A stretch of DNA of 64,000 bases, taken from an uncultured Gammaproteobacteria bacterium (lineage in GTDB: Bacteria > Pseudomonadota > Gammaproteobacteria > Arenicellales > JAANXG01). Made by a program: the position numbers and the translations under genes. Below the pieces are notes generated by a model. That model ran no database searches and was not told the origin of the DNA. It worked only from the letters and a program-made list of their open reading frames with translations. The stretch lies in the NCBI GenBank assembly GCA_963731035.1, contig CAVSUY010000022.1, positions 4,887-68,886 on the forward strand, in the 5' to 3' direction. The number at the start of each line of letters is the position of its first letter. Position 1 is the stretch's first letter. This document shows, in pieces, positions 13,099-46,814 of this stretch.

Positions 13099-13143
13099 TG
13101 GTGGGCGTGGGGTGTGTTGGCTGTGGTGCCTGGGTTTTGAGTT

Positions 13144-13167
13144 GATCGCGACTGAAGTCGCTCCTAC
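13144..13167. repeat. REP family 2 unit (gatcgcgactgaagtcgctcctac)
   Basis: Same GC-rich hairpin unit as at 23.1, 23.9, 27.0 and 40.9 kb. Confidence 0.8.
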
Positions 13168-13182
13168 GGGGGGCTTCGTTCA

Positions 13183-13461
13183 TCAGGCGGCGAGGTCTAT
13201 GAGCTCGTTTCTTATGTGGCCGTGTTTTTGTTTGACCAGATCCAGGACTTCGGGGGAGCCCTCGAGCTCGTAGCTGAGGTTGTGGATGTCGGTGCCCTTA
13301 ATCAGGATGCGCAGGGGATTGTGGCAGTCGGGGATCTGGACGTCGGCGAACTTCTGCTTGACCTGGCGGGCGGCTCTCAGGAGCACTGCTTTTTGGACGC
13401 TGTCGCCTATGAAGCAGGGGTCGAGCTTGCGGCCGGCCAGTTCGTAGTGGATTTCCAGCAT
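13183..13461 (-). CDS. hypothetical 92-aa protein between nrdJb and dcd
   Basis: Start at MLEIHYELAGRK. No family recognised. Confidence 0.5.
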   Translation of the reverse strand: MLEIHYELAGRKLDPCFIGDSVQKAVLLRAARQVKQKFADVQIPDCHNPLRILIKGTDIHNLSYELEGSPEVLDLVKQKHGHIRNELIDLAA

Positions 13462-13614
13462 TGGCGTTTCAGTTCTGTGTTGGTTGGTATCGCATAGAGA
13501 TAAAAATGCTCCCTCCCCCATGCGTCGAGGGAGGGAGTACTGCTAGGTCCATCCTTGGACGAGGAGGAACGGGGTTCCCCTGCCAATCTTTCTTGGGCAA
13601 TTCTGTCGGTTCCG

Positions 13615-14391
13615 TCAGCCGCACTTGGATTCGCCGCAGTTGAGGCAGGTGAGGCAGCCGTCGAGTTGGACCATGGCCTTGGTGTGGCACTTGGTGCACA
13701 GGGTGGCGCCGCTGGGGAACTCGGCGTCGCCCTCCTCGTCGTCGGCCTCTTCCTCGGCCTCTTTTAGGGCCTTTTTGTGGGCTTCTCCCCGGGCGCCCGT
13801 GGCCCGCTCGTACTTGGTGCGGGCTTCCTCGACGTGCGTCTGCTGGTTCTCGTCCAGGCTCGGCTTTTCGAGGAGGCCGATGCTGATCAAGTGCTGCTCG
13901 ATGACGGTGCCGAGCTCGGCCACCAGGGACGGCATGTAGCGGCCGCCTTTCTTGAAGTAGCCGCCGCGCGGGTCGAAGACCGAGTGCAGCTCTTCCACCA
14001 GGAAGGTGACGTCGCCGCCCTTGCGGAATACCGCCGACATGATGCGCGTGAGGGCGACGATCCACTGGAAGTGGTCCATGTTCTTGGAGTTGATGAAGAC
14101 CTCGAAGGGACGGCGCAGCTCGTGCTCGGTGCCCTCGTTGAGGACGATGTCGTTGATGGTGACGTACATCGCGTGCTCGGACTGCGGGGTCTTGATCTTG
14201 TAGGTGGAGCCGCGCAGCACCGGCGGGCGCGCCACCTGCTCGTGCATCTGCACGACTTCGGCACGCTCGGGGTCGCGCTTGGGCTCGGCGGCCGGTTTGG
14301 GCGCAGCCTCGGGCTCCGCCTGCCGGGCTTCCGGGGGTTCGTTCTGCAGGACTTTGTAGTCCACGATGGGTTTTTCGATTTTGATGGCCAT
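13615..14391 (-). CDS. nrdJb: class II (B12-dependent) ribonucleotide reductase, small C-terminal polypeptide
   Basis: TSCPD-like region (YVTINDIVLNEG...PFEVFINSKN) and a C-terminal Cys cluster CTKCH...CLTCLNCGESKCG. Sits 16 nt downstream of nrdJa. Confidence 0.85.
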   Translation of the reverse strand: MAIKIEKPIVDYKVLQNEPPEARQAEPEAAPKPAAEPKRDPERAEVVQMHEQVARPPVLRGSTYKIKTPQSEHAMYVTINDIVLNEGTEHELRRPFEVFINSKNMDHFQWIVALTRIMSAVFRKGGDVTFLVEELHSVFDPRGGYFKKGGRYMPSLVAELGTVIEQHLISIGLLEKPSLDENQQTHVEEARTKYERATGARGEAHKKALKEAEEEADDEEGDAEFPSGATLCTKCHTKAMVQLDGCLTCLNCGESKCG

Positions 14392-14407
14392 GTCTTGTCT
14401 CTAAACT

Positions 14408-16561
14408 TTAAAACTTGCCGTAGTAGCCTTCTTTCAAGGCTTCGAACAGGTTGGCAGCGGTGTGGGTCTCGCCGTCGTACTCGATTTCCTCGTTGCCGCG
14501 GGCGCTGACCGTGGTGCCGTCCTTGAGGGTGAACTCGTAGACGGTGTTCTCGAGGTCCTTGTCCTTGACCAGCACGCCCTGGAACGCTTCCGGGTTGAAT
14601 CGGAAGGTGGTGCAGCCTTTGAGGCCGCTTTCGTAGGCGTACAGGTAGATATCCTTGAAGTCCTCGAAGGGATAGTCGGTCGGCACGTTGGCGGTCTTGG
14701 AGATCGACGAGTCGATCCACTTCTGGGCCGCGGCCTGGATGTCCACGTGCTGCTTGGGGCTGATGTCGTCGGCGGTGATGAAATAGTCCGGCAGGCGCTT
14801 GTCCGGGTCGTCCGAGAACGGCTCGGCCTTGCCGTTGATGTGATGCTTGTAGGCCAGCATCTCCATGGAGTGAACGGTCACCTTCTCCTTGGATTTGCGG
14901 CCCTCGCGGATGACGTTGCGCGAGTACTGGTGCGCGAAGCTCGGCTCGATGCCGTTGCTGGCGTTGTTGGCCAGCGACAGCGAGATGGTGCCGGTGGGCG
15001 CGATGGAGCTGTGGTGGGTGAAGCGTGCGCCGGCCTCGGCGATCTCGCTCACCAGGTCCGGATCGGCCTCGGCGAGCTGGCGCATGTAGCGGCTGTACTT
15101 CGCGATCAGCACCCTGCCCTTCACGGTGTCGCCGGCCTGGTAGCCGTCGCTCTCCAGTTCCGGGCGCTTGCGCAGCATCTCCGCGGTGATGGTGAAGTCA
15201 TCGTCCATGATGGGCGCCGGTCCTTTTTCCCGGGCCAGGGCGACCCCCTCACGCCAGCCCGCGAGGGCCATCTCGCGGGTCACGCGCTCGGTGAACTCGA
15301 GCGAATCGGATTCACCGTACTTCATGCGCAGCATGGTGAGGGTCGAGCCCAGGCCGAGATAACCCATGCCGTGCCGGCGCTTGTACTCGATCTCGTGGCG
15401 TTGCTGCCCGAGCGGCAAGCCGTTGATCTCGACCACGTTGTCCAGCATCCGGGTAAACACGCTGACGACGTCTCGGAATTCATCCCAGTCGAAGCGCGCA
15501 TCGTCCGTAAACGGATCGCGCACGAACTTGGTGAGGTTTACCGAACCCAGAAGGCATGAGCCATACTCCGGAAGAGGCTGCTCTCCGCAGGGATTGGTCG
15601 CACGGATGTTCTCGCAGAACCAGTTGTTGTTCATCTCGTTGACGCGGTCGATCAGGACGAAGCCCGGCTCGGCGTAGTCGTAGGTCGACGCCATGATCAT
15701 GTCCCACAGGCGGCGGGCCTTGATGGGCTTGTAGACCCGGCACGCCACCAGTCCCTCGTCGTTGCTCACGTAGCCGCGCCTGGTGGGCCACTCTCGCCAA
15801 ACGATGTCCTCGGCCTGCATGGCCTCGGGGTTATCCCGCAATTCCTTCTCGTCGACCGGGAAGATCAGCTTCCACATGCGGTCGTGCTTGACCGCCTCCA
15901 TGAAGTCGCGGCTGATCAGCAGCGACAGATTGAACTGGCGCAGGCGGCCGTTCTCGCGCTTGGCGCGCACGAAGTCCTTCACGTCCGGATGGGCAACGTC
16001 GAAGGTGGCCATCTGCGCGCCGCGCCGGCCGCCGGCGGAGGACACGGTGAAGCACATCTTGTCGTAGATATCCATGAACGAAAGCGGGCCGGAGGTGTGG
16101 GCACCGGCGCCGGAGACGTAGGCGCCCCTGGGGCGCAGGGTCGAGAACTCGTAGCCGATGCCGCAGCCGGCCTTGAGCGTCAGTCCTGCCTCGTGGACCC
16201 GCTGCAGGATGCCGTCCATCGAGTCCTGCACCGTGCCGGACACGGTGCAGTTGATGGTGGAGGTGGCGGGCTTGTGGTCCCAGGCGCCGGCGTTGGAAAC
16301 GATGCGGCCGGCCGGGATAGCGCCGCGGCGCAGGGCCCAGGTGAAGCGCTCGTACCAGTGCTCCTTCTTTGTCTCGTCCGACTCCACGTCGGCGAGGGCC
16401 CGGGCGACGCGCTTGTAGGTGCCGTCGAGGTCCTCGTCGATGGGGTGCCCGGACTTGCTCTTCAGGCGATACTTCTTGTCCCAGATGTCCAGCGACGCTT
16501 CCTGGAGGGGAAGATCTTTCTTCGACTCTTTGTCGGCCGCCGGTAACTGTACGCTGCTCAT
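14408..16561 (-). CDS. nrdJa: class II ribonucleotide reductase, large polypeptide
   Basis: 717 aa. SNAGAW...TINCTVS, NPCGEQPLP and APTGTISL are RNR catalytic motifs. Confidence 0.95.
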   Translation of the reverse strand: MSSVQLPAADKESKKDLPLQEASLDIWDKKYRLKSKSGHPIDEDLDGTYKRVARALADVESDETKKEHWYERFTWALRRGAIPAGRIVSNAGAWDHKPATSTINCTVSGTVQDSMDGILQRVHEAGLTLKAGCGIGYEFSTLRPRGAYVSGAGAHTSGPLSFMDIYDKMCFTVSSAGGRRGAQMATFDVAHPDVKDFVRAKRENGRLRQFNLSLLISRDFMEAVKHDRMWKLIFPVDEKELRDNPEAMQAEDIVWREWPTRRGYVSNDEGLVACRVYKPIKARRLWDMIMASTYDYAEPGFVLIDRVNEMNNNWFCENIRATNPCGEQPLPEYGSCLLGSVNLTKFVRDPFTDDARFDWDEFRDVVSVFTRMLDNVVEINGLPLGQQRHEIEYKRRHGMGYLGLGSTLTMLRMKYGESDSLEFTERVTREMALAGWREGVALAREKGPAPIMDDDFTITAEMLRKRPELESDGYQAGDTVKGRVLIAKYSRYMRQLAEADPDLVSEIAEAGARFTHHSSIAPTGTISLSLANNASNGIEPSFAHQYSRNVIREGRKSKEKVTVHSMEMLAYKHHINGKAEPFSDDPDKRLPDYFITADDISPKQHVDIQAAAQKWIDSSISKTANVPTDYPFEDFKDIYLYAYESGLKGCTTFRFNPEAFQGVLVKDKDLENTVYEFTLKDGTTVSARGNEEIEYDGETHTAANLFEALKEGYYGKF

Positions 16562-28329: not shown

Positions 28330-29356
28330 GCGGTCGAGCCGCCGCGTTGCCTATCCGCCTCCGGACCACCTCCAGGGAACGTTCAACGCCTGCCGCGAGA
28401 ATCCCGGAGACCGCCAGGATCAAGGGCAGCGAAGACAACACCAGCCCTGCCCCGTGCCGGCTGACTCCGATCCCCAGGGCGTGGTACAGATAGAAGACGG
28501 TCAGGCCCGCCAGAAAGTGCACCAGGTATATGGGGTAACTCAGATCACCGAGGCGCTTATCGAAGCGCCGGGTGAGCCATGAGGAAGGCTTTATCTCGGA
28601 CAGGCCCGCTACCGCCAGGCTGCACAGCACGTAGTTCGAGTAGAAGAATATTCCCGTTGACCGACCGGTCAGCCAGCCGCCCAGCCAGTTCGCAAGTATG
28701 ATCCCGACCAACACCAATGGAACCCAGGCTCCCGTCAAGTCGAGAGCTCGCCTGAAGTATTGCGGGATCGAAGCACCGAAATGAAAGATCAAGGCGCCGG
28801 TGGCGAAAGGGAGAGACGCGGAAGGGATTGCGAAGTACTGGTAAGGCCAGCCGAACTGAGCCGTCACAGCGACGACATGGTAGGCGACGCTTGCGGCAAA
28901 CCATACGATCACTGACTTTTTCGTCTTCGACAACCCGAGACCGATCAGGATATAGAAGCACAGCTCGACGGTCAGCGCCCAGGCCGGGGGTATCAAACGG
29001 GGAGCCGCCCTGGCCGGGAAGAAGATCAGGATATTCCGAGCGAGCTCGTCGACACTACCGGGGAGATAGAGAGTCGGGCGATAAGCGGTGGCAAACTGCT
29101 CTCCCACCAGCGCGATCAATAAGGCGGAAAGGCCGATGGACAGCCAATAGATCGGATAGATCCGGAGAAACCTGTTCAGTAGATAGCGAGCCGCGCCGGC
29201 CGGGGTGTGACCGTAGTCCCGGTGCATGATGCAACTCATGAGATAGCCGCTCAGCACGTAGAATCCGAACACGGCGTACGCGCCCATCCGTGGCGCCCCG
29301 CCAAGGTGCTGGGCGACCACCATCAACGCCAACGCGGTGCGGAACGTGCCGAACAT
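28262..29356 (-). CDS. acyltransferase family 3 (membrane O-acyltransferase)
   Basis: FRTALALMVVAQHLGG...FGFYVLSGYL with multiple TM segments. Last gene of the 32939-28262 operon. Confidence 0.85.
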   Translation of the reverse strand: MFGTFRTALALMVVAQHLGGAPRMGAYAVFGFYVLSGYLMSCIMHRDYGHTPAGAARYLLNRFLRIYPIYWLSIGLSALLIALVGEQFATAYRPTLYLPGSVDELARNILIFFPARAAPRLIPPAWALTVELCFYILIGLGLSKTKKSVIVWFAASVAYHVVAVTAQFGWPYQYFAIPSASLPFATGALIFHFGASIPQYFRRALDLTGAWVPLVLVGIILANWLGGWLTGRSTGIFFYSNYVLCSLAVAGLSEIKPSSWLTRRFDKRLGDLSYPIYLVHFLAGLTVFYLYHALGIGVSRHGAGLVLSSLPLILAVSGILAAGVERSLEVVRRRIGNAAARPLSSCRRQARPSILRRAASHRTP

Positions 29357-29380
29357 TACACGGCGGACCGTCGGGTCGCG

Positions 29381-30682
29381 CTAGCCGAGAATATCGAAGG
29401 TCCCTCCATCCGACAGGATGGTGCCTTCGCCGATTTCGTAGCGCAGCCCCGTATTCAGGATCCGTATATCCATGGTGCCGGCACAGCCCCTCCCGATCAC
29501 GAGCTTGTTGTGGCTGCCGCGAACCCAGATCCGCGATCCCTTGCGAAATACGACGTCGTCGCCGATCTCGACCCGGTTGTCGTGGCCCACGAGCTCGAGA
29601 CGGGCGCCCGACTCTATGCGGACATTCCGCCCGATGCTCACGACGTTCGCGAATCCCCTGGCCTTGACCTCCAGCGAGCCCGCCACTTTGCCGGATTGGC
29701 ATGTGACGCGATTGTCCTCGGAGCTCGAGTCCATGGTCACGCCCTCGACGCATGCAGCCGTAGCGGGATCTGCGGCATCCTCGCTCTCGCCCGCTCTGAG
29801 AATGCGCGGCCAGAGTCCGGAGCCGGGCGAGAATCTGTCCAGAAAACTCCGCGCATCTTCCTTGAGCGCCGGCACCACCTCGCGCAGAGCTTCGCCATCC
29901 CAGTCTACCGGTGTATCGGCAAACGGACGCCGCAGCCCGAGTTCCTTCAGAAGGGGATCAATGTGGTCGGGAGGTATCCTATCCAGCGCCTGGGCGATCT
30001 CCGGGAACTTCCCGCGTTTTCGGAAGTGCCGCATGCGCTGCGTATCGTAGAGCTTCTCCCTCCCTTCGTTCAGGCGGATGTCACATTCGGGTATTTCAAC
30101 ATCCGGATCCACGCCCAGAAAATCGAAACATCCCCGCAATACCATTCTTGGGTCCGCGGCGAGATGCTCGAGAAACACGACGTGTATCCGCCCCTCGTCC
30201 ATGTGGTCGAGATAGTTGCGGATCCGCTTCCAGTAGAAAGCATTCTCGAGAATCGACTCGTCTGTACGGGTGGCACAACCCAGAGAGTATGGCGCCAATA
30301 CGCCGTAGAGATGGCCGCTGTGATGAATCTCCTTGTACGCAGCCTCCACCCGGTCGATGGGATCGCGGGCAATGAAGATCAGCTTCATTCCTGGATAGTG
30401 ATGCAGCATCCGCTCCCGGGAGACGCGTTCGAATTCAAAATCCGTGTAGCAGGTGCTGCATTCCCCGAGCAACACGCCGGGCCGGGCATCCTTGAATCTT
30501 TCCGCGTATCCCGACCAATGGCTTAGGTAGTCCTCTTTGGGAAAGAAACAGAATTCCTTGAGACCCTCCCCCGTCGGCATGAAGAGCTGCGGATGACGCG
30601 AGAGCAGCTCGGTCAGGGTGGTAGTTCCACACTTGCTGAAACCCGGAACGATGAAATCGACGTGAATCGGAGGGCGCGTCAT
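29381..30682 (-). CDS. sulfotransferase (PAPS-dependent) fused to a C-terminal beta-helix/hexapeptide-like domain
   Basis: 5'-PSB motif VPGFSKCGTTTL and 3'-PB motif IARDPIDRVEAAY. C-terminus has repetitive V/I-G-x-x patterns. Confidence 0.85.
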   Translation of the reverse strand: MTRPPIHVDFIVPGFSKCGTTTLTELLSRHPQLFMPTGEGLKEFCFFPKEDYLSHWSGYAERFKDARPGVLLGECSTCYTDFEFERVSRERMLHHYPGMKLIFIARDPIDRVEAAYKEIHHSGHLYGVLAPYSLGCATRTDESILENAFYWKRIRNYLDHMDEGRIHVVFLEHLAADPRMVLRGCFDFLGVDPDVEIPECDIRLNEGREKLYDTQRMRHFRKRGKFPEIAQALDRIPPDHIDPLLKELGLRRPFADTPVDWDGEALREVVPALKEDARSFLDRFSPGSGLWPRILRAGESEDAADPATAACVEGVTMDSSSEDNRVTCQSGKVAGSLEVKARGFANVVSIGRNVRIESGARLELVGHDNRVEIGDDVVFRKGSRIWVRGSHNKLVIGRGCAGTMDIRILNTGLRYEIGEGTILSDGGTFDILG

Positions 30683-30691
30683 CTCACGAGC

Positions 30692-31363
30692 TCACTGGTC
30701 ACGGTATTCGAACCGGTATCGAAAGGTCTCGATGTCATCAGCGTACATCTCGGCGACCCGGTTGCGCGTCTCATCCGTATAGTAATCGCTGTAGTGCCTG
30801 GCGTTGCCGCGCCGGTTGCTGCGGGAGATCAGGCGCTCGTAGACGTCATCCATACCCAGGGAGTACAAGTACGGTCTCAAGGTAAGCTGGAGATCTTCCA
30901 GACGCAGAATTCTATCCACCATCAGTTCGCCGTCCCCGTCGCCCGCGTAGTGCCGTGTGTCGTAGGCGCCGTACTTTCGCCAGCGCACCGAGTCTTCACC
31001 GCCTCCCCCGGGGCCCTCGGTGCGCACCGTGCGCAGCCAGGCGGCGAAGCTCCCGGGGGAGTCATCTGCTTCGCCGCGCTCCTCCTCCTCGAGTACGTGT
31101 CGGTACAGCGAGACCAGCCTTTCCCAGGGATTTCGCGTGAGCATGAACCGGGTGTAGCTGTCGAAATCCAGACCTCGGCTGACGAACACCTCGCGCACCT
31201 CGATGGGACGCATGTGAGGATAGTACGGCAAGTCCTCAGTCCTCGTCAGATAATCCTTCGCGGGAAACTCGTCACTGTAGGGATTCAGGAACTGGCGTAC
31301 GCTGGAGGAACCGGTCTTGGGGTTGGCGAAGAAGATGAATCTGTAGCGGTGCGAAACGCGCAC
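30692..31363 (-). CDS. sulfotransferase family protein (type 2-like)
   Basis: FIFFANPKTGSSSV and MLTRNPWERLVSLY. Confidence 0.8.
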   Translation of the reverse strand: MRVSHRYRFIFFANPKTGSSSVRQFLNPYSDEFPAKDYLTRTEDLPYYPHMRPIEVREVFVSRGLDFDSYTRFMLTRNPWERLVSLYRHVLEEEERGEADDSPGSFAAWLRTVRTEGPGGGGEDSVRWRKYGAYDTRHYAGDGDGELMVDRILRLEDLQLTLRPYLYSLGMDDVYERLISRSNRRGNARHYSDYYTDETRNRVAEMYADDIETFRYRFEYRDQ

Positions 31364-31374
31364 GATGTTTCTCT

Positions 31375-32579
31375 CTAGGCCGCTTCGCGGGGCGGCCTCC
31401 CCGTGGTGGCCTCCAGAATCAAGGCGCTGCAGGTCTCACTCCCTTCGGCATCCCCCAGCGCCCGCAGCAGACACATCAGGTCGCCGAGCGCTACATCCCA
31501 TCGGAACCTCTCGCGAATGCGCGCCGAGGCTGCCGCCGCCGAGGACTTGTACCGGTCCCACTCGCTCCACATCTGGTGCAGCGCCGCCTCGAGCGCGCTC
31601 TCGTCGACCTTGTAGCCGCAATCCGACGGGTAGCCGAGCGGATCCCGCGATACCTCGCCTCGGTCCATCGGAAGATCCAGGGAGTTGTCATCGTCGAGGT
31701 ATTCCCCCAGCGCCGTATGCCGCGGAGCAATGACCGGGGTTGCGCAGGCGATTGACTGCAGTGGAATCAGGCCGAAACCCTCGGACTTGCTGGGGTGCAC
31801 GGTGCAGTGCGCGTTGCGGTAGCAGGCGGCGAGGCTTTCCACCTCGCGGTGCTCGGGCATGTCGAGATGGACCAGCTCTTCCGTCCGGTGCTCTTCGATG
31901 AGCTTCGGCAGATTGCCCGGCTCGTCCACTCGCAGTTGCAGCCGGACGCCGCGCGTGCCGCGAAACACATTCGCGAAGCATCGGATCAGCTCCGCGGCCC
32001 CCTTGCGGTCGGCGAAGCGGCTCGAAAACACGTTGAGAAACGTGAACGGACCGTCGGCCGGCGGCCCTTCCCCCGGCCTGAACGCCGGCTCCAGGCCGTG
32101 CCCCACAACCATGATGGGCGTCGTGACGCCGGAATCAATGAACGCGCGCCGGCAGAACTCGGACGGAACGATGACGAGGTCCATGGTCTGCAGGCGCTCC
32201 ACCCAGGCCGCCGGGATTGTCTCGCTCTCGCAGACGAAACCCGCAATCCGGACCCGGTGGCCGTCGAAGAAATCCGGGATATAACCCGGAAAACCATAGA
32301 AAAATCCCACGGGCGCATGACTATCCAGGCCAAGCCCGCTTCGAGCTCGCCGCGGAACAACGGCGGACCATAGTAGTTGCAGATTCCCGCGCCGGGGATG
32401 TGCTTCAGGACATGGGTGGCGATCTCGCCGGCGACACTCGCGATGGAACCGTATCCCTTCAGCGGTCCGTAGAATTGCAGGGGCAGACCGGAGCGCCTCG
32501 GCGCGGAGAAATCGAGAGGGGACGGAAGCTCAAACTTCGTTTCGACGGAAGCGACTACGGTTCCCATTGTGGTATTCAA
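31375..32579 (-). pseudogene. GT4 glycosyltransferase with one frameshift near 32335
   Basis: N-terminal frame reads MNTTMGT...GYGSIASVAGE...ELEAG. C-terminal frame reads LGLDSHAPVGFFYGFPGY...HPSKSEGFGLIPLQSIACATPVIAP. Span is 1205 nt (3n+2). Confidence 0.75.
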
Positions 32580-32606
32580 GCATTGACCGCACCGGCCACA
32601 CTACCC

Positions 32607-32939
32607 TCAGCAGACGTTCGTCGCGGAGAGACTGACGTTGGTGATGGTATGGCTCAGGGGGCCGGTGAGGTAGGTACTGTTGCAGTAGGGCGTGGAGCCG
32701 ACGTAGGTGAAGTGCAGGTCAACGCGCATGGCACCAGCGCTGGTCTGGGTACAGGTAACCGATACGTTGAATGCCCCGCAGGTCGGGTGCACGTATACGA
32801 ATCTCGTAGCATTGACTGAGGTGCCAACACCCGTGAGCACACCGTCCGCCGGCTTACTCACCGCGTTGAAAGTGATGATTCCATTGCTGGAACCGGGAGT
32901 GTGACAGTAGGTCACCGAGACGTTGACACTGATGGACAT
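32607..32939 (-). CDS. small Cys/Ser/Thr/Val-rich protein, first gene of the modification operon
   Basis: 110 aa from MSISVNVSVTYCHTPG. 6 Cys and 5 N-x-S/T sequons (NVS x3, NAT, NST). No signal peptide seen. Lies 27 nt upstream of the GT4 gene. Confidence 0.55.
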   Translation of the reverse strand: MSISVNVSVTYCHTPGSSNGIITFNAVSKPADGVLTGVGTSVNATRFVYVHPTCGAFNVSVTCTQTSAGAMRVDLHFTYVGSTPYCNSTYLTGPLSHTITNVSLSATNVC

Positions 32940-33299
32940 GTATGTCGCTCTTCTTTGTTCTATACTCGGTTCATCGGGGGCCGAATCACGTTGCACTTTT
33001 TCGCGAGCGACCAGGCGAGAATCCGGACGTCGGCGGAATTCGCAGGATCTGTCGCGAATTATATCCGGTAACGCTCCGACCGCAAATCAGGGATGGCGAT
33101 TGCTCCCAATCCTTGTCGGCGCGCGGGAGCAAAGCGCTATTCGACGGATGTGGACCACCAGTCAACTCTGATGGGCCGCTGGGCTCGGTTCGCCGGAAGC
33201 GGCCGGGGGGCCGGCATTCCAGTTGCGGGCGATCCTCGTCTCTGCTGTCTGAACGGCACTTCACTAGCTGATAACTGGCTTCTGCTAGCAGCAGGCACA

Positions 33300-36250
33300 G
33301 ACTGATGCCATCGCGGTATAGATCACGACTGTGGGGTCGCTCATCGCGTACAAGGGCTGATACTCCAGCCTGAAGAAAAGCTCTCTGGTGAGCGAAAGCC
33401 GGTATGTGCCCAGATACGGCTGTACGATCGCGAGCTGATCCACAGCATCCTTTCCGTGGACTTGGCGATGGGACTAGCACGTCTAGGTTGCAGGAGGCGA
33501 TGAGAACCGCTAAGGCGCACACGGCACCACTAGGCTCAATGGATGTGCTCTGGGAAAAGGCATTGCATCTTGTCCCAAGACAACCAATGAAGCGTAGACA
33601 GAACTACTGCAGCTGTACTCGGAGGGGTGATCCTCCGCAATACTGTCTTTGCTCGCCAGTACGAACTAGATGTCGACTAGATCGCTAGCAGGACTACCGT
33701 GAAAAGCGCGTCACTGCGAAAGCTGTTTATGACGGTTCTCGCAGCTAGGAGCTGAACCACTGTCGCGAGAATCAGAACTGGGACTAGGAAACGCTGGCAA
33801 AGCAGGACGACTACGGGAAACAGAAGGTAGAACTGCATCTCCAGTGACAGCGACTAGTGCCGAACAGGATGTTGCGGTACTCACTGTCGCTATACAACAG
33901 CTCAAAGGTATAGTTGGCGAAGTTGAGCAGGCGCTGGCACCGACGATCAGGTTGCTCTTGACTGTTCTCAACGCTCCGGTTTCATTGAACTGCGCCTAGC
34001 ACGAGACCTGCGATACCGTCTACGCTGCGCATGATGCGCTAGATGCGGCGGATCTAGAAGGCTGTGGCGTGTGGTAGAACTGTCTCTTGCTCGATGCGGT
34101 TTGAAGCTGCGAGAGCAAGTGCGTGCGATCTCGAAACTCGAGTGACTAAGAAAAGAGTGACGCTACTGGCGCTTGAACTAGTCGCTGAAAAACTACAGAG
34201 ACTCGGTCTTCTAGTGGAACTGTTTGAGCTTCAGTTGATAGATTATACTAGTACTATCGCGACGGTTAGGAGCACTTCGATGTCGTCAATCTGGGAAGTT
34301 GCGCTGCTTTTTTCAGAGGCGTACATGTCGGTTAGAGCGGCATGGATTGATCTCTTTGGTTGTGAACTATCTAAGCGAGTTCTCTGTATTATATATTCGA
34401 ACTGTGGAGCTAGCTGAGTTACTAGGGGTCGTTTATGTCGGATTATTGATCTTTTGATGAACGACAACGTTTCTTTGTCTATTTGCTTCGGAAAGCTCTG
34501 TGGTAGCGATGGTCTCGGCTCGGGCAGTCGAGACTGTGTGGTGTATTTATCTGAAAGCGCTGCGAGGACTGAGAAACACAGAGGTGGCATCGGATACAGA
34601 GTCGCGTAACGATGATGACTAGCGAGTGCTACGTCATCGCTTTCTCATCTCTCTCGGCTGGCGCGCTCGGTTAGCGCGCTGCTGCTGTGATTTTCACCGG
34701 CTACGACGTCTACGATGATTCGTACAAGACTGACACTTCGGGACGCTGATCGGATAGCTGAACGACTATTCGTTGATCGTGTGTGCTCTGAGCTTACAGC
34801 GCTTACTGTCTGATATTAACTGACTAAAGCGATAGCGAGATCGCTGCAATTATATCTCTCTGTTAGAGCGCTACGACACTGTTAGAAAGAACTATGACTG
34901 CTATAGAGAAATCGAGCTTGCTTCAGTGCTGTATACGTGGACAGCTACTATCTTTGCTTCTCTCGGTAAAGCTCGTAGAGCTATTTCTCAGCGCTGGGGT
35001 TTCGAATCTCACTGAAATCGGCGACAGTGTTTGCTGCGCGTGCTGGACTTCTGCTGATCGGGTGAGTGCTTTAGCTTTTGAGAAGTTTTGTACTGCTAGA
35101 AGATTGAAGAACTTAGAAGAATGCTGACAGAGCTATGATTCTGCTGCTAAAGCGAATTGATATGCATCAATTTTTCTATGTATTACTAAATATAAGAGCA
35201 ATTAAGTTAGATTAGATTGCTCTGCGACTTAGTCAGAGCTAAGAAACGATCTATTCTGAGAAACGATAGCAATTTCAATAAAGTGATATATGTGATAGAA
35301 ATCTTAGATCAGCTACATTTCTCTGCGATTTCGGAGTACTTTGCGAGCGACTCTATTGAACTACTGCAATTGCTGATAGAGCGCGTAGCGCTGATTCTGT
35401 CGATTAGTACTATGCTAGAGATCTACGCTGCGCTGAGAACAAACTCGCTATCTTAGTGTCTGTTGACTTGTGAGCTCTACTCGCATCTTCTGAGTAACAG
35501 CTGAATGCTGAGTATTAATTCGAAGTGCTGAGCGCTTTCTGCTTAACGCACCGCTTCTACGACGACGCTACTCTGTTCTTCTAGACCGACGCTCTCGATC
35601 TCATACTGCTGCGCATGTCTGAGAGCTAGCGAAAATAAAACGTTTATATGCTAAGTGCTATTAATAGCTGTAGATCTGAACTCAACTTCTTATTGCAACT
35701 AGCTAGCGAACACTACTTTCTTCTTCCTAGACTACTCTGCGATGTGTCTGCTCAAACAATCGCGGATTTCTTGATCCTAGCGTAGTGCTCATCGCGCTGA
35801 GCTGAGACGCTCATACAGAACTGATCTCTGCTGAAAATAAGTACAAATTAAACTCTTAGCGCTACACAGATCTACGCTCTTCGAATCTCCCACTCTCTAC
35901 TGAGACAGCTTGTGCGACTATAACTGAGAGAGCTTCGCAGAGTTTTCTAAAAATATTACAAAACTACGCTAACGACACGGACACCGATTACTCTCTGTGT
36001 CCGCTGCACGCGCTAACTGTTAGCGCGCTACTGAGAAACTCACACCGTAGCTACGCACTCTAGAGCTAGCTCTATCCGTTACTGCGCTATCTTGCTCATA
36101 GCTGCGACGCTGAGAAGACCGCTCTCTATTGCACTGAGCTGAGCTGACCCGAATACAGCTATACTTCGATCTCAAAGCTTCCTGCCGATATTGAACGCAC
36201 GATCGCTATTCGAACTGCCAAACTCACGGCCCGACTCAACAGTGAACCGA
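33300..36250. other. ORF-free, compositionally graded tract (GC minimum ~32% near 35.2 kb; CTAG-rich; GG/CC-poor)
   Basis: No ORF >117 aa in six frames, and all three stop codons occur in all frames. Dinucleotide and tetranucleotide hand counts are given in the findings. Confidence 0.8.
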
Positions 36251-36606
36251 CAGATCGCCTGAATCTCTCCGCTGTGCTACGCCCGCCGCCCGCACTCCGA
36301 GCAGCTCCGACGAGCTCGTGCCGCTGTTCGCACGGAATTCGACGATATCCCGCGAGGAATGAGCACCTGCCGCAGAACGACTGACGCGCGCTCGAGAGAC
36401 ACGAGAGCCATCCCCACTCCGCGTCGCGCACGGCGGTGCGCACGCATGCGTCGCACCCGCGAACGATCCCGCCCGCTCGCGCCCTGCGCAGAGAACACGA
36501 CCGGCCGAACCGGTACGGCCTGGTGGTGGAGAGAAACGACGCGGACAGCCGATCGCTACCACCGGTAAGGCGGAAGGGGAGCTGACACGGAGCTGAGCGC
36601 ACCTGC

Positions 36607-37228
36607 ATGAGATATCGCTTCCCGGAGGCGCGGCGCCCCCGAGCCCGACGACGAGAGCCGGCGACCACGGAGCTGGAGCTCCGGGCGACGACACCCACGA
36701 TCCGAATCCGCCGGACGGCCGCAGAACTGCGTCGACCCGACACTGCTACTGCCTGGCTCTCACACACCCGGACGCCACCTACTGCACCCGACCACACGAC
36801 ACCAACCTCGGTGTCGGCCACTCCCGCACCCCTTGCGACGGTGGCACGGCAGAAATGCCGCGTCGCGCTCACCAACAGCTCCATCCGGACGCCGCGATCG
36901 CCGCCCGCCCTGGCGAGCCACTACTGCGACAACGCGACCAGCGGCGAAGGCCAGTGCCGCCGCTGATGGAGTACATGTCCGCCGGCGCACCGGCAGTGGC
37001 TCCCGATCACACGGGAATGATGGACTACGTGAACCGGCACAACGCGCCATCGCGGAGGCCGACCGCGAGCCCTGCGGATGGCCCCAGGATGGCCGCGGCG
37101 CGCACCGCACCCCGCCGGCGCCCAACAAGGAGTCCCTGGTGCGCCAGCTCCGGAGAAGCTACGACGTCGCGGCCAACTCTCCCTCCTTGTACGCGGAGAT
37201 GGCCGGGCGAGCCCGGTCGACCTGCTGA
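36607..37228 (+). pseudogene. GT4 glycosyltransferase fossil (C-terminal half recognisable, several frame changes)
   Basis: ...RVALTNSSIRTPRSPPALASHYCDNATSGEGQCRR / LMEYMSAGAPAVAPDHTGMMDYV / PNKESLVRQLRRSYDVAANSPSLYAEMAGRAR lie in three frames. They align to VHLDMPEH..LAACYRNA..PSKSEGFGLIPLQSIACATPVIAPRHTALGEYL of the gene at 31375-32579. Confidence 0.55.
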
Positions 37229-37319
37229 AGCACTGCTCGCCGGCGGCTGTCTCCACAAGCTCCAGCAACCGACGACGCGCACGGCGAGCGGATGTCTCCA
37301 CCCCGTGAGGCGGAGGAAC

Positions 37320-37901
37320 ATGGTCGAAATTCGGACACGAACGCCAAGCCAAACGCGCCTACCTGGTTCTGGGAGCGGAGTCCAGCGGCACGCACATGGT
37401 GACCGAGCTGTTGATCAGCGCGGGCTGCATTGGCCATGCCGGTGATCACATCGATTGGCAGATCGACCAGCGGGAGCTGCCGAGGACGGATTTCGGCTCT
37501 GGGAGTCCGTCGTGCCCACCGCCAGCAGCCGTGGGATCCGAGCTGCCCCATGACCAGACTCCCATCGTCTGGCGCTAGAGCTCCCCCACGGTGGCGATCG
37601 GGTGGACATCTCCGGGTTGATACAGTTGCTCGAGGAGCGGGGCTATTCGGTCACGACTGTGGTGATCACCCGCTACCGCCACGCCACGATCCAGTCGCAG
37701 CTCAAATGGCGTCATGCCGCCGATGCCACGGCGGCCGCCGCCGCGATCGATCGTGCCACCAGGCATATACCCGCTCATCTCGACAGATGCGCCGCGGATT
37801 TCACCCGGGTGACATACGAGATTCTGGTGCGCGATCCCGGCGCTCGCGAGACCTTGCTGTCGTCGCTGCGCCTCGTGGTGCCTAGCGGTTGGCGCCTGTG
37901 A
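37320..37901 (+). pseudogene. P-loop (sulfotransferase/kinase-like) small protein with two compensating frameshifts (near 37350 and 37575)
   Basis: MVEIRTRTPSQ / KRAYLVLGAESSGTHMVTELLISAGC...TPIVWR / ELPHGGDRVDISGLIQLLEERGYSVTTVVITRYRHATIQSQ. Confidence 0.6.
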
Positions 37902-38068
37902 GAGAAGACAACACAAAATGGGACGCAACGGACGCGGGCGGGCCGGTGGAGGGTTTTCCGGCCGCCGAAGCGCAGATACCGCTCGACGGATTTCCCGAAT
38001 GGAGCTTCGCCTGCCAGCACGCCTTGAGGCGGAACTATCTCGAGTGCGCTCACTAGGGCTGTAAGCGC

Positions 38069-38816
38069 ATGAAGGAGTCCACGGTCATGCTGTGCGGGTT
38101 GGCGCGAGACGTTGAAAGATATCTTGACCCGGTCATTGCCCGCGTTGAGCGATTCGGCCGCTGCTTTGCGAACTACAGGGTGGCGGTATATGAGAACGAT
38201 TCACGCGATTCGACGGCCGCCCGGCTTCAGCGGTGGAGAGAGGAAAACGAACGCGTAGTGGTTCTCAATGAAACCCGGGGCGTCTCTGCGTGGCCAGTTG
38301 GCACTTCCCCTGAGCGCATGGGGCACATGGCGCAATGCAGGAATCGGTATGGAGCTCGCCGGCGATACCTGCCCGGCGGCCGACTTCGTCGTCGTGTTGG
38401 ACATGGACCTGCCGCAGGGATTCAGCTACGAGGGAATCGCCAACACGTTCGGCGATTCGGAGTGGGACATCGTCGGGTCCAACGGTATACTGTTCGCGCC
38501 GGCCGGGGGGATGCCGCTGGGCAGGCGCGACTCTTCGATATGGGCGTTCAGGACAGACGAGTATCCGGACGGGTCGGCATTGGAGATGGTGAACGCGCTC
38601 CGTTTCGAGCGAGGAGAGCCTCTGGTCCCGGTGCGCTCGTGCTTCGGCGGCCTGTGTGTTTACCGCGCGCCGGCTTTCTTCTGCGGCGAACGGTACGATG
38701 GCGGGGACTGTGAGCACGTCGTGTTCCATGAAGCTCTGAGGCGCCGCGGGTATGATCGCCAATTCCTGAATCCGAGCCAGATCGTACTTTACACGGGACC
38801 AGACAAAGCGGGATGA
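38069..38816 (+). pseudogene. GT-A-fold-like transferase, frameshifted near 38348
   Basis: MKESTVMLCGLARDVERYL...VAVYENDSRDST...AQCRNRY, then MELAGDTCPAADFVVVLDMDL...CFGGLCVYR. Span is 748 nt (3n+1). Family call is inference. Confidence 0.6.
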
Positions 38817-39571
38817 ATGCTCATCCACAACAGATTCATGAACTCAGCTCGCCGCGCTACGGCTCCCACTGCTGCGAACCTCGCTCGATTGTCACCCGCA
38901 GATCGAATGCCATACCGAGGTATTCAATCCGGACTTCACCGTGTTCGCCCCGTATGATCGCGCCACTCCCGCGGTAAAGATCTCGATAATCACATCTTCG
39001 GCACACGGCCGTCCGAAATCCAATCGGTGGGCTTCTTACTGCATAGAAGCGCGCCAACTTCGGCGCCTGGCAGGACCTGTGGCCCCGGCTGGAGAAGGAT
39101 GATGCCCTGCGCATCGTCAGCCTGCGGCGCGAGAACCTGCTGCGCCGTTACCTGTCTTATCTCACCATGAAAGAGCCGCGCGAGCGCAAGCTCCATCCAC
39201 GGACACTGGATCCCGTGGAGTTGGAGGCGGAGTTCGAGGCGCGCCACAGTGAAATCACATCGTTCGACGAACGCTTCGCGGGCCATCCGCTGCTGGTCGT
39301 GACCTACGAGCAGCTGTGCCACGACCACGCCAACACCCTCGAGGCTGTGCAGCACTTCCTGTCAGTGCCGGTGACGGACCTGGCTCCGCACACCAACCGC
39401 AATCCGCGCCTGGATCTCAGGTCGGCGATTTCGAACTACGACGCCCTCCGCGCCCACTTCGAGCACACGCCCTGGGCGGGATTCTTTGACGACAGACCGG
39501 AGCCCCCGGTTGACCAGATCAAGTTCGGTGGATACACGGGACGCATCACCATTGCTTCCTCTGGCGACTGA
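38813..39571 (+). pseudogene. sulfotransferase with at least 2 frame changes and an in-frame TAG
   Basis: MNAHPQQIHELSSPRYGS / LLRTSLDCHPQIECHTEVFNPDF / ...SVGFLLH / NFGAWQDLWPRLEKDDALRIVSLRRENLLRRYLS...LLVVTYEQL...FLSV. ATGA overlap with the previous gene. Confidence 0.6.
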
Positions 39572-39603
39572 GACCGGCCTCCGGGGACGGACGCCGGAGA
39601 ATC

Positions 39604-40068
39604 TTGGAGGCCGCGTCCCCGGGAATATCCCCTATGAATGATCCTGAGCCGGGGTCTCTTTATGTGCCGTATCTAACCGACAACTTCTGGGAAGAAACCG
39701 CACTCGACCGCTTCCGCTACGATACGTTCGTGGAAACAGGGAGTTACAGAGGGTTCGTGCTTGAGTTCATGAAAACCCGATTCAGGTTCATTGACAGCAT
39801 CGAGCTTTCGAATAGATGGTATGAGTTTTGCCGGGAAAAGTTCAGGAATGATGCGCATATGTATTTGCATCAGTTTGAGTACAACTGGACCGGTATCACA
39901 CTGGAGAGGGTACTGGGTCTGATGAAGCCGGGTTATGGGTGCTTGGAGAACGCACAATCCCGGTATACAGTGACACCTCGCGAGGACCAGTTGATCTTCT
40001 ATCCTCTTGGGGACCGGGCGTTCTTCGAGCGACGAGGAGCGGGGTGTAACGGCTGGGGAGGCTTCTAG
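39604..40068 (+). CDS. hypothetical protein with methyltransferase-like N-terminal motif, possibly degraded
   Basis: DTFVETGSYRGFVLEFM...IDSIELS resembles class I/FkbM-type MTases. Downstream motifs not found. Confidence 0.35.
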   Translation: MEAASPGISPMNDPEPGSLYVPYLTDNFWEETALDRFRYDTFVETGSYRGFVLEFMKTRFRFIDSIELSNRWYEFCREKFRNDAHMYLHQFEYNWTGITLERVLGLMKPGYGCLENAQSRYTVTPREDQLIFYPLGDRAFFERRGAGCNGWGGF

Positions 40069-40283
40069 GCGCCGATCGAGAAGGCCTGGCTGGTGGTGCC
40101 CCTGAGCCCGTGGGTGGCGATGACGGAGCTTCTCGCATGAGCCGGCAGCGTAACGGATTCGATGATGGGCCTCACCCAGCGCGTCGGTACCGTCGTACCC
40201 GCGAACAGCGAAGCGGCGAGCAGAGTCCGGCGAACGTGCTTGTGATCGAAAGATCCATCGCCCTTTTTAGACTTTTCTTTCAT
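40065..40283 (-). CDS. small secreted peptide precursor sharing the leader of the 4111-4596 protein
   Basis: 72 aa. HVRRTLLAASLFAGTTVPTRWVRPIIESVTLPAHA then a 22-aa tail. The motif W-x-[KR]-P-[VI]-I-[DE]-S-V-x-L-P-A-H-A is shared. Confidence 0.5.
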   Translation of the reverse strand: MKEKSKKGDGSFDHKHVRRTLLAASLFAGTTVPTRWVRPIIESVTLPAHARSSVIATHGLRGTTSQAFSIGA

Positions 40284-40413
40284 AACTGAAACCTTCTTCG
40301 GCAGGCCGAGACAACCCGATAAGCAAAGTATACAGCTTTTCGCCGGCAAGTCGTCGCGGCGGCCAATCTGCGGCCTGGGCCTTCGTTCGTTCATCCCGCC
40401 GGTCCGGCTGAGG

Positions 40414-40884
40414 TTGCACCGGCCGGCGGGATGGAACGGGGCTCAGCTCAACGAATACGCCCACTCGGCGCCGCTCGCGCGGCAGATCCCCAGCGCCCGG
40501 CTGGTGGAGCTGCCGGGTCCTGATCACTTGTTGTTCGCCGGTGACAACAGCGACGAGATCACCCGGGCCATCGTGGATTTTATCGAGGCTCCGGCGAAAC
40601 GCGAGAAGACCAATCGCGTGCTCGCGACCATTGTTCTGATCCAGTACGGAGACGGCGTGGGCGACCGTGTGTCCGACGCCGTGGCGGCATCTGTCAGTGA
40701 CGAGCTCCGGCGTTTTCGTGCCACCCACGTCGCGGCCCAGGACGGCGCCGGGATCGCGGCGACCTTCGACGGTCCCGCCAGGGCTCTCGAATGCGCGCGC
40801 TCATTGTCGCTGCTTCTCTCTGCGGCGGGCATCCATCACCGCATCGGGGTACACGCCGGCGAGGTTACCCGCGATCGTCTGTGA
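40414..40884 (+). pseudogene. fragment of an alpha/beta-hydrolase + class III nucleotidyl cyclase fusion
   Basis: ARLVELPGPDHLLFAGDNSDEITRAIVDFI is a hydrolase C-terminus. RVLATIVL...GIHHRIGVHAGEVTRD is a degenerate, truncated cyclase. Ends at a REP. Confidence 0.6.
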
Positions 40885-46154: not shown

Positions 46155-46814
46155 CTAGTCAGCCCTTTTCGGGCCAGGCTTCTGGCGCCGCAGGCGACGA
46201 CCCGTTAGAGATTCGAGGCGCCGAAGGAACGAATCGGAGCCCAACGGGCGGCCGGTACGTTCATGGAGCTTAAGCACTTCGGTATCTTGCGGGCTCGGAT
46301 TTTCCGTCAAGTATTCGGACCAATCGTCGACGCGATTTAGCATCGGGGCCACGCTTACCAATTCGTCGTCCCTGCCGTCCAAATGTGCCCGGGCACTGGA
46401 CCATTTCCAGCTTCCCGGACGAGTACACAGGCCGGCTCGAACCGGGTTCAGCTCAATGTAACGGACGGCGGCTATCAAGTGAGACTCATCCATCGGGAAC
46501 GAAGCAAAGCGGCCCTGCCACAGATACCCCCTCCATCCTTCACGAAAGTTGACATAGCGTGTGTATCTCCTGTGTGCTTCAGCCAGTGATCGATGCAGAC
46601 CGTCAATACTGCGGGGCAATAGCACGAGATGCACATGATTGGGCATCAGACAGTAGGCCCATACCGCAACATTGGCCTTCTTACAGTGGCGGCTGATCAA
46701 GAGCCTGTAGTGACGATAGTCCCTGTCGGAAAAAAAGACTCGTTGCCGGCGATTGCCGCGTTGCGTGATGTGGTGTGGGATATCAGGTACCACGACCCGT
46801 GCCATCCTGGCCAT
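46155..46814 (-). mobile_element. REP-associated tyrosine transposase (RAYT, IS200/Y1 family)
   Basis: IPHHITQRGNRRQRVF...YCLMPNHVHLVL...YIELNPVRAGL. Flanked by inverted REP units. Confidence 0.85.

Follow-up and report, generated by a model that had tools for sequence, protein, structure and literature searches.

The T-poor, A/C-rich segment at 36,250-37,050 of the window (the whole stretch of DNA analysed here, 64,000 nucleotides) is, with a probability that we put at roughly 0.7, part of a local basecalling or consensus artefact and not an evolved property of the genome. This explanation is favoured because the changes that separate the segment and its surroundings from an intact public allele run in one direction, depend on short motifs and are confined to a single contig.

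The intact allele was taken from four independent public contigs (L081, L082, L083 and L084; two from ENA, two from Logan), in which every gene of the locus is intact and which agree with one another at 99.93-99.99%. Over 28.4-32.8 kb the window is 100% identical to these contigs bar a 1-nt deletion at 32,334, the sole difference within 28,400-32,803, and it is nearly identical again over 39,400-40,498, where two G>C changes were found (39,701 and 40,380). Given the 100% identity of the flank, the intact contigs are not unrelated paralogues. Identity falls smoothly from the flanks to 72-75% at 34.8-36.8 kb and then rises again, and in all, the comparison counted 577 substituted, 192 deleted and 9 inserted bases. 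The tract that holds the dense differences lies within a surface-glycan island (Table 1) missing from a strain that is otherwise 99.986% identical. Elsewhere the source contig is very accurate, an alignment of 14.3 kb to a short-read contig showing no gaps and only 2 mismatches.

Table 1. Features of the island and of the altered tract (window coordinates)
Feature	Position	Strand	Remarks
Surface-glycan island, 12.5 kb	28387..40866		sulfotransferases, glycosyltransferases, acyltransferase; encloses tract
Aberrant tract, 6.6 kb	32804..39389		holds all dense differences from intact allele
Zone 1	32804..33900	+	almost purely C>T, at 5'-CC
Zone 2 (core)	33900..36250		near-total loss of CC, then GG
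Zone 3 (T-poor segment)	36250..37050	+	almost only T and G substituted, always to A or C
Zone 4 (tail)	37050..38000	+	T>C and loss of single Ts, chiefly TT>T or TT>TC; fading
Acyl_transf_3 gene, disrupted	33162..34326	-	396 aa when intact
Gene without assigned function, disrupted	34457..36101	+	559 aa in L082; most altered part of tract
Group-1 glycosyltransferase gene, disrupted	36092..37308	+	439 aa in intact allele
502-aa gene with CAP59-like glycosyltransferase domain, disrupted	37320..38816	+	split into fragments in window
Sulfotransfer_3 gene, disrupted	38813..39571	+	254 aa intact; only C-terminal 134 aa left as ORF

The altered version is absent from L081-L084, short-read assemblies included. 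Its proteins are recorded on one contig only, the 620,104-bp source contig, and the intact versions on several. The window-specific variants already stand in the NCBI and ENA records of that contig, which rules out a sequence introduced after deposition. Five ORFs of the altered region (241, 214, 196, 110 and 144 aa) were looked up by exact sequence in a protein-to-contig index without a match, as was the 155-aa fragment of the CAP59-like gene that is annotated on the source contig (38,349-38,816); this index evidently omits the source contig, because cluster member lists hold the altered proteins. Scans of JGI metagenomes with the intact glycosyltransferase protein and with a tract-specific 22-mer gave no match either (an example of a tract-specific k-mer is GAGCTGAGCGCACCTGCATGAG).

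The T-poor segment overlies the glycosyltransferase gene, whose copy in the window measures 1,217 nt against 1,320 nt in the intact allele (103 nt shorter), with about 100 deletions and no continuous open frame. The intact allele (protein P0012) matches Pfam Glyco_trans_1_4 at 29.6 bits over residues 280-356 (curated cut-off, 27 bits), aligns with the adjacent GT4 protein at 30% identity over 73 aa (E 1e-7) and carries the motif SGEGQCLPLMEYMSAG (E, seven residues, E). This E-x7-E nucleotide-sugar motif defines the GT4 family; by domain and motif, the predicted product of the intact allele is a group-1 (GT4-like, GT-B) glycosyltransferase. Since Pfam searches of the ORFs of the window gave no match at E ≤ 0.1, and a tblastn search of the region with the GT4 of the window as query found a single 47-aa match (E 0.007), the gene is identifiable through its intact allele only. 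The first-pass annotation had described a GT4 fossil here and an intact GT4 paralogue. That a disrupted GT4-like gene underlies the segment is confirmed by the domain match of the intact allele; great age is contradicted by flanks that are 100% or almost identical to that allele, and the supposedly intact paralogue carries a frameshift of its own in the window, the deletion at 32,334.

Base counts showed that the skew persists when computed. At 36,361-36,600 the composition is A 21.2, C 35.8, G 34.2 and T 8.8%, exactly as counted by hand in the first-pass annotation. At 36,601-36,840 (A 19.6, C 42.5, G 27.1, T 10.8%) the hand count stands for T and for the excess of C over G; A had been overstated at 21.7%. 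The A+C content of the segment is 57-62% and not about 64% as claimed, and the segment as a whole (36,250-37,050) has A 20.1, C 38.5, G 30.1 and T 11.4%. Positions 36,361-36,840 hold the lowest-T 240-nt windows of the whole 64 kb; T reaches its minimum of 8.3% at 36,461-36,720, against a window-wide median of 19.2%, and AT skew rises to +0.44. Intact minus-strand genes at 12-18 kb have a stronger AT skew of opposite sign (to -0.57), so bulk composition alone is not unique in the window. The sense strand of a dCTP-deaminase-like gene has A 21.5, C 41.6, G 23.8 and T 13.1%. What distinguishes the segment is a scarcity of T in each of the three codon phases, together with the absence of 3-base periodicity from 36.25-37.3 kb. 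The intact allele of the same segment is without skew (A 17.7, C 32.6, G 32.8, T 16.8%). The pile-up of overlapping ORFs reported at 36,159-37,900 was likewise found, with stop triplets sparse on both strands (about 11-12 per kb per strand, against 22 and 20 per kb window-wide); on the plus strand the intact allele already has as few as 11.4 per kb.

Polarized against the intact allele, almost all substitutions within the T-poor segment affect T (19 to C, 13 to A) or G (13 to C, 8 to A) of the plus strand, accompanied by 81 deleted and 2 inserted bases; T falls from 16.8% to 11.4%, and TT from 3.4% to 0.7% of dinucleotides. The first-pass annotation had envisaged a GT4 pseudogene of long standing, with a minus strand that stayed single-stranded and was deaminated over a long time, so that the plus strand grew rich in A and C. 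Several of its observations hold: the plus strand loses the keto bases T and G (A and C on the minus strand) and gains A and C, T>C outnumbers every other substitution, and codon position 2 takes 23 of the 34 T>C changes, recasting Val, Ile and Phe codons as Ala, Thr and Ser. We nevertheless regard the model as very improbable. The alignment that it called for returned a spectrum that is not of the long-term single-strand deamination type, for transversions match transitions and the 81 deleted bases fall within 800 nt. The intact allele has no skew, and flanks identical to that allele leave no time for slow decay. The segment is, moreover, one zone among several that differ in their one-way spectra, with adjoining zones changing in opposite directions.

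The analogy with mitochondrial heavy and light strands extends to one strand being A+C-rich and the other G+T-rich, with losses from one strand. Mitochondrial skew consists of transitions built up over long times and genome-wide, whereas here it occupies a 0.8-kb zone in which half of the changes are transversions, beside zones with other spectra and DNA identical to the intact allele. The transitions expected on an exposed strand (C>T, A>G) do not account for 36,250-37,050, and neighbouring sites that should have diverged as well are almost unchanged. Ordinary decay of bacterial pseudogenes shares with the tract the GC>AT direction of the core and an excess of deletions; the rate would, however, be impossible, with about a quarter of bases changed next to 4.4 kb and 1.1 kb that show 0 (the 32,334 deletion apart) and 2 changes, respectively.

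The other zones were characterized in the same manner. Nearly all changes in zone 1 (50 of 57) are C>T, 49 of these 50 in 5'-CC, with graded density; CCC became CTC 13 times and never CCT or CTT. The core has CC at 0.4-0.6% of dinucleotides (8.6-11.2% in the intact allele) and GG at no more than 1.0% (9.5%). No base in the core is replaced by anything but T or A (C>T, G>A, C>A, G>T, A>T); GC content drops from 66% to 43%, stop triplets increase five-fold and identity is reduced to 72-75%. A divergent block with lower core GC between identical flanks might suggest that recombination brought in a divergent homologue of lower GC in place of the island centre. We give this the least credence of the readings considered: the changes are one-way, with no AT>GC in the core, are even over codon positions and have broken all five genes, and the divergence is graded and not block-like. 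The even spread is seen in C>T (34, 38 and 54 at codon positions 1, 2 and 3) and in G>A (36, 40 and 31). Repeat and tandem-repeat searches over 30-41 kb revealed no duplication, template/variable repeat pair or inverted structure explaining the tract, and Rfam and tRNA scans of the window gave no match.

Over the whole tract the spectrum is strictly one-way. Among the 577 substitutions there is no C>G and no A>G, and there is one A>C and one T>G; C>T or G>A make up 347. Changes to T stand directly after a C in 244 of 289 cases, A>T and G>T included, and 140 of 162 deletion events remove a single base. Dinucleotides CC, then GG, then TT are almost removed in succession along the tract. CC became CT 77 times and TC never, and CCC became CTC 30 times against a single CTT. 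Changes at G (GGG becoming GAG; GG>AG 20, GG>GA 13, GG>AA 10) are not the mirror image of those at C, which argues against a single enzyme working on both strands. Longer motifs undergo identical complex changes: CCGGAC became CCGCAC three times, its reverse complement GTCCGG being unchanged outside the core (40,225 and 40,402); TGCCTGG became TATGG twice; and TCGA became TAGA in the core, with five cases, and -CGA or ACGA at 36.2-37.3 kb, also with five. The concordance of outcomes grows with the width of the context considered (0.17, 0.24, 0.40, 0.44). The changes are thus context-determined, strand-specific and recurrently identical, with an excess of deletions.

It is also conceivable, though unlikely, that localized hypermutation took place in vivo, in one catastrophic, strand-coordinated event that inactivated five genes of a recently acquired glycan island. 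On either side of a break near 36.2 kb, exposed single strands (plus on the left, minus on the right) would have suffered dense lesions or deamination; faced with non-instructive sites, translesion synthesis would have put in A (or C) or passed over them. The tract would accordingly be a real scar, with a deaminase-like left arm (5'-CC>CT) and a remainder resembling lesion bypass (to T, to A, to C or skipped), a reading that we likewise hold to be unlikely. Consistent with such an event are the pure, graded, one-strand C>T of zone 1, the conversion of everything to T and everything to A in the core, as bypass by the A-rule on either strand gives, indels that are almost all single-base deletions, the product expected of lesion skipping, and C>T to the left with G>A further right, as in break-associated clusters. 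The accuracy of the contig elsewhere and the presence of the altered sequence in the public record fit as well. Against it, 25-30% of positions are changed beside unchanged flanks, for which we know of no precedent in bacteria. A>T and G>T are seen specifically behind a C, T>A and G>C equal transitions in frequency, and A>G is absent while T>C numbers 31. The plus- and minus-strand zones overlap for more than 2 kb with no switch point, the middle C of CCC is nearly always the one altered, repeated motifs change identically over several bases, G and C patterns are not mirrored, and the altered version is known from one contig only. The left-arm C>T also lies on the transcribed strand, opposite to what an R-loop model predicts.

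Zone 1 taken by itself shows what a cytosine deaminase leaves (C>T/G>A only, in mirrored context and without indels); over the tract as a whole this pattern is lost, differences other than C>T/G>A making up more than 40% of all substitutions and indels. The tract resembles APOBEC3G editing and kataegis in the 5'-CC context, single strand and gradient of zone 1 and in the G>A further right, and departs from them in the middle-C rule, the 192 deleted bases, the 2-kb overlap of strand zones and the unmirrored G and C patterns. To our knowledge, no APOBEC3G-type or kataegis-like process has been described on bacterial chromosomes. With fungal RIP the tract shares dense GC>AT change on both strands, new stops, an AT-rich product and fading flanks. 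RIP acts in fungi, on duplicated DNA, in CpA context and through transitions only; the tract differs in its CC/GG context, its bacterial host, the lack of any duplication found, and its transversions and deletions. If hypermutation were nonetheless real, this would be the first case of a localized, strand-coordinated form in a bacterial chromosomal island, and would point to a previously undescribed way in which bacteria destroy foreign or unwanted genes by hypermutating them locally, in effect an equivalent of RIP or APOBEC editing in prokaryotes.

Four further candidates were considered and rejected. R-loops or transcription asymmetry fail since the left-arm C>T is on the template strand of leftward genes, contrary to prediction. 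A single double-strand break with resection is at odds with strand zones overlapping by more than 2 kb and with the abundance of other change classes. UV-type dipyrimidine damage would not leave TC sites unaltered, and a diversity-generating retroelement does not agree with A>G and A>C being essentially zero, nor with a tract that is far too long.

Alternatively, the tract may be a faithful read of one damaged DNA molecule, such as relic extracellular DNA or a molecule resynthesized across lesions by library repair enzymes, that entered the consensus through low coverage of the island; it would then be an assembly artefact arising from DNA chemistry and not from signal decoding. We rate this, too, as improbable, at a level with hypermutation. 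The bias towards T and A and the deletion-only indels suit bypass of non-instructive lesions, the altered version is known from a single contig, and island depth may be low because the island is strain-variable. The preceding-C rule, the middle-of-run rule and the motif-identical complex changes look more like the work of a decoder than of chemistry, however, and the lesion density required is extreme. On the letters of the DNA alone, this alternative is inseparable from the artefact that we favour.

For the favoured basecalling or consensus artefact, the following course is envisaged. Over 6.6 kb, the gene cluster in the 620-kb contig would be a corrupted version of an intact cluster that is otherwise identical to it. 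The contig is probably of long-read origin, as suggested by its length and by the Flye-style names of its sister contigs, and its consensus at the tract was probably built on long reads that were too few or aberrant. The accuracy of the contig elsewhere excludes a general quality problem, so a local loss of read support must be assumed. The read signal may have been misdecoded systematically, leaving a draft too divergent for polishing, with miscalls set by local context and drifting along the tract: at first the base following C would be read as T, then the base preceding G as A, and lastly G and T would be read as A or C or skipped. At 36.25-37.05 kb this last mode would deplete the plus strand of T and G, giving the A/C-rich skew and the open frames.

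Several points count against such an artefact: raw long-read errors usually include many insertions, the contig is very accurate elsewhere, and zone 1 alone resembles a textbook single-strand cytosine-deaminase cluster. Furthermore, a scan of 1.7 Mb of retrieved loci turned up no other CC- or GG-free tract, so a recurrent type of artefact cannot be shown. Motif- and strand-specific nanopore miscalls that enter assemblies are documented (PMC11610573, PMC11610603). The tract is like them in its dependence on motif and strand, its identical recurrences, its C/T and A/G confusion in part of its length, its deletions far outnumbering insertions and its altered homopolymer runs. The published errors are sparse single positions and mostly transitions (PMC11610573, PMC11610603), whereas the tract is graded over 6.6 kb, with 25-30% of bases changed and transversions common.

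If the tract is an artefact, an otherwise near-perfect 620-kb MAG contig holds a 6.6-kb corrupted patch that makes five intact glycan-modification genes look like pseudogenes and creates false compositional islands, namely a stop-rich block of about 42% GC and a T-poor pile-up of ORFs. Patches of this kind would distort pseudogene counts, island detection and studies of mutation spectra, and would be recognizable by one-way spectra, loss of CC, GG and TT, and flanks identical to intact alleles.

The composition of the T-poor segment was recounted directly from the sequence. Positions 36,361-36,600 gave A 21.2, C 35.8, G 34.2 and T 8.8%, reproducing the first-pass annotation, and in 36,601-36,840 (A 19.6, C 42.5, G 27.1, T 10.8%) the reported T content agreed but the reported A content of 21.7% did not. 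Over the full segment, 36,250-37,050, direct counting gave A 20.1, C 38.5, G 30.1 and T 11.4%; A+C was 57-62%, short of the ~64% claimed. The T-poor, skewed segment nevertheless exists as observed, with T lower at 36,361-36,840 than anywhere else in the 64 kb and an AT skew of up to +0.44. From 36.25 to 37.3 kb all three phases are low in T and show no codon periodicity. The pile-up of overlapping ORFs is likewise real: stop triplets number 11-12 per kb here versus 20-22 per kb window-wide, and because all six stop triplets, as read on the plus strand, contain T, T-poverty opens both strands.

Bulk composition alone does not earn the segment exceptional status. Intact minus-strand genes at 12-18 kb have a skew of opposite sign and greater strength, with T at 24-28% of second codon positions and nearly absent from third positions; the sense strand of one, a dCTP-deaminase-like gene, has A 21.5, C 41.6, G 23.8 and T 13.1%. 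The window's strongest skew (11,971-16,561, AT skew to -0.57, plus strand G+T-rich) stems from ordinary intact minus-strand genes, this gene and a two-part class II ribonucleotide-reductase-like pair, identified from their translations, whose sense strands carry just 1-5% T at codon position 3.

Intact versions of the locus were retrieved by exact-protein look-up with a sulfotransferase encoded in the surrounding island. Every gene is intact in four public contigs (two from ENA, of 14 kb, and two from Logan), which agree with one another at 99.93-99.99%. Alignment to one of these, L081, covered window positions 28,334-40,498 end to end, with 100% identity at 28.4-32.8 kb and almost 100% at 39.4-40.5 kb; between them identity declines gradually, reaching 72-75% at 34.8-36.8 kb, before climbing back. 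Dynamic-programming realignment of the tract of dense differences (32,804-39,389) gave 577 substitutions, 9 inserted bases and 192 deleted ones, with 140 of the deletion events affecting a single base. The altered version was not introduced into the window afterwards: proteins with its specific substitutions are on record in NCBI and ENA, on one contig only (620,104 bp), and no second copy was found in JGI metagenomes or in the gene index, which appears to lack the source contig.

Genes under the tract, with the length of the intact product
Gene	Intact length (aa)	Position	Strand
Acyl_transf_3	396	33,162-34,326	-
Gene of unknown function	559	34,457-36,101	+
Group-1 glycosyltransferase	439	36,092-37,308	+
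CAP59-like	502	37,320-38,816	+
Sulfotransfer_3	254	38,813-39,571	+

The gene described at first as a GT4 fossil is the 439-aa group-1 glycosyltransferase gene. Its intact allele clears the Pfam Glyco_trans_1_4 cut-off, aligns to the neighbouring GT4 with an E value of 1e-7, and has an ordinary composition (A 17.7, C 32.6, G 32.8, T 16.8%). That neighbour, taken earlier for an intact paralogue, is itself truncated in this contig: the loss of one base from a run of C (CCCC>CCC) at 32,334, 470 nt away from the dense tract, shifts the frame of the 397-aa gene (31,375-32,567, minus strand), which is why the source annotation lists a GT4 product of a mere 311 aa.

The Lhr helicase of the window shares 86% identity with its counterpart in an Arenicellales MAG, and the organism is an Arenicellales-like gammaproteobacterium. 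A JGI contig matches the window at 99.986% over 14.3 kb with no gaps, joining position 28,393 directly to 40,867, and in the relative L002 the homologue of window 26.9 kb directly follows Lhr. Since 28.39-40.87 kb (28,387-40,866) is missing from both, it constitutes a strain-variable glycan-modification island of 12.5 kb, carrying sulfotransferases, glycosyltransferases and an acyltransferase. Three of the intact contigs (L081-L083) carry the same island at 100% identity beside a left flank only ~80% identical, which suggests that it moved recently from one lineage to another; the island junctions showed no clear terminal repeats. The gene list of the JGI contig also places an IS200/IS605-type Y1 transposase gene near Lhr (46,155-46,814, minus strand) and, beyond it, a NarGHJI nitrate reductase operon at 49.5-57 kb.

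Changes in the tract are one-directional and shift in kind along it. Over the whole tract C became T 215 times and A 70 times but never G; G became A 132 times, T 44 times and C 20 times; A became T 43 times and C once but never G; and T became C 31 times, A 20 times and G once. From 32.8 kb onward there is C>T alone, 49 of 50 changes falling at 5'-CC, and CCC became CTC 13 times but never CCT or CTT. A>T and C>A join from 33.9 kb, G>A and G>T from 34.5 kb, and of the 289 changes to T, 244 come immediately after a C. CC falls from 8.6-11.2% of dinucleotides to 0.4-0.6% at 34-36 kb, GG from 9.5% to at most 1.0% at 34.8-36.25 kb, and in the core (33,900-36,250) GC drops from 66% to 43% while stops rise five-fold. 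The stretch 33,600-36,250, low in GC (42-50%), stop-rich and full of CTAG and AGCT strings, could be taken for foreign or non-coding sequence; nowhere is the tract more altered, and the stretch lies over the acyltransferase gene and the 559-aa gene, both intact elsewhere.

Within the T-poor segment the pattern reverses: almost exclusively plus-strand T and G are hit, always becoming A or C. On the later realignment T went 19 times to C and 13 times to A, G went 13 times to C and 8 times to A, and 81 bases were deleted; the share of TT among dinucleotides drops from 3.4% to 0.7%. In a MAFFT alignment, 83 of the 148 T that the intact allele has in this segment were kept, 28 became C, 11 A and 4 G, and 22 were deleted. 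The same alignment placed T>C at codon positions 1/2/3 in 5/23/6 cases, so the predicted excess at position 2 was numerically right, mainly because over half of the gene's T lie there.

Changes with no chemistry in common run in one direction and obey a single neighbour rule. Transversions are as numerous as transitions in the T-poor segment, A>G is absent yet T>C common, insertions are near zero, and in triplet runs the middle base is the one replaced. The C and G patterns are not mirror images (CC>CT 77, CC>TC 0; GG>AG 20, GG>GA 13, GG>AA 10). The same motif repeatedly undergoes the same, strand-specific change: CCGGAC>CCGCAC three times with GTCCGG left unchanged, and TGCCTGG>TATGG, in a motif containing CCTGG, twice (recurrent motif sites in the faint right-hand tail: 37,105, 39,386, 39,698, 38,348 and 38,539). 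TCGA changed to TAGA at five sites in the core; at 36.2-37.3 kb, five TCGA sites became -CGA or ACGA. Agreement in outcome between sites grows with shared flanks (0.17, 0.24, 0.40 and 0.44 for ±1 to ±4). Together they point to a process that reads sequence context by rule, not to mutation.

We consider a local basecalling or consensus defect the probable origin of the tract (about 70%). The few reads supporting the strain-variable island may have suffered signal-scaling drift, which would yield graded, directional, context-specific miscalls. Nanopore miscalls that depend on motif and strand and pass into assemblies have been described, but as sparse positions only (PMC11610573, PMC11610603). 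A close variant, in which a single, heavily damaged molecule was read faithfully, is improbable. Equally doubtful is genuine hypermutation in vivo, against which the context rules speak, even though the changes at 32,804-33,900, taken alone, form a clean cluster of the single-strand deaminase type, the 'to T / to A / skip' outcomes are similar to those of bypass at non-instructive lesions, and the rest of the contig is excellent. Identical flanks, one-way spectra and the even codon-position spread led us to reject recombination with a divergent allele, ordinary pseudogene decay and long-term single-strand deamination of a fossil; of the last, the original interpretation, direction of change and gene identity stand, whereas age and cause do not. 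Most likely, then, the feature is not a real property of this genome, and it would be of low interest unless read-level data vindicate the tract.
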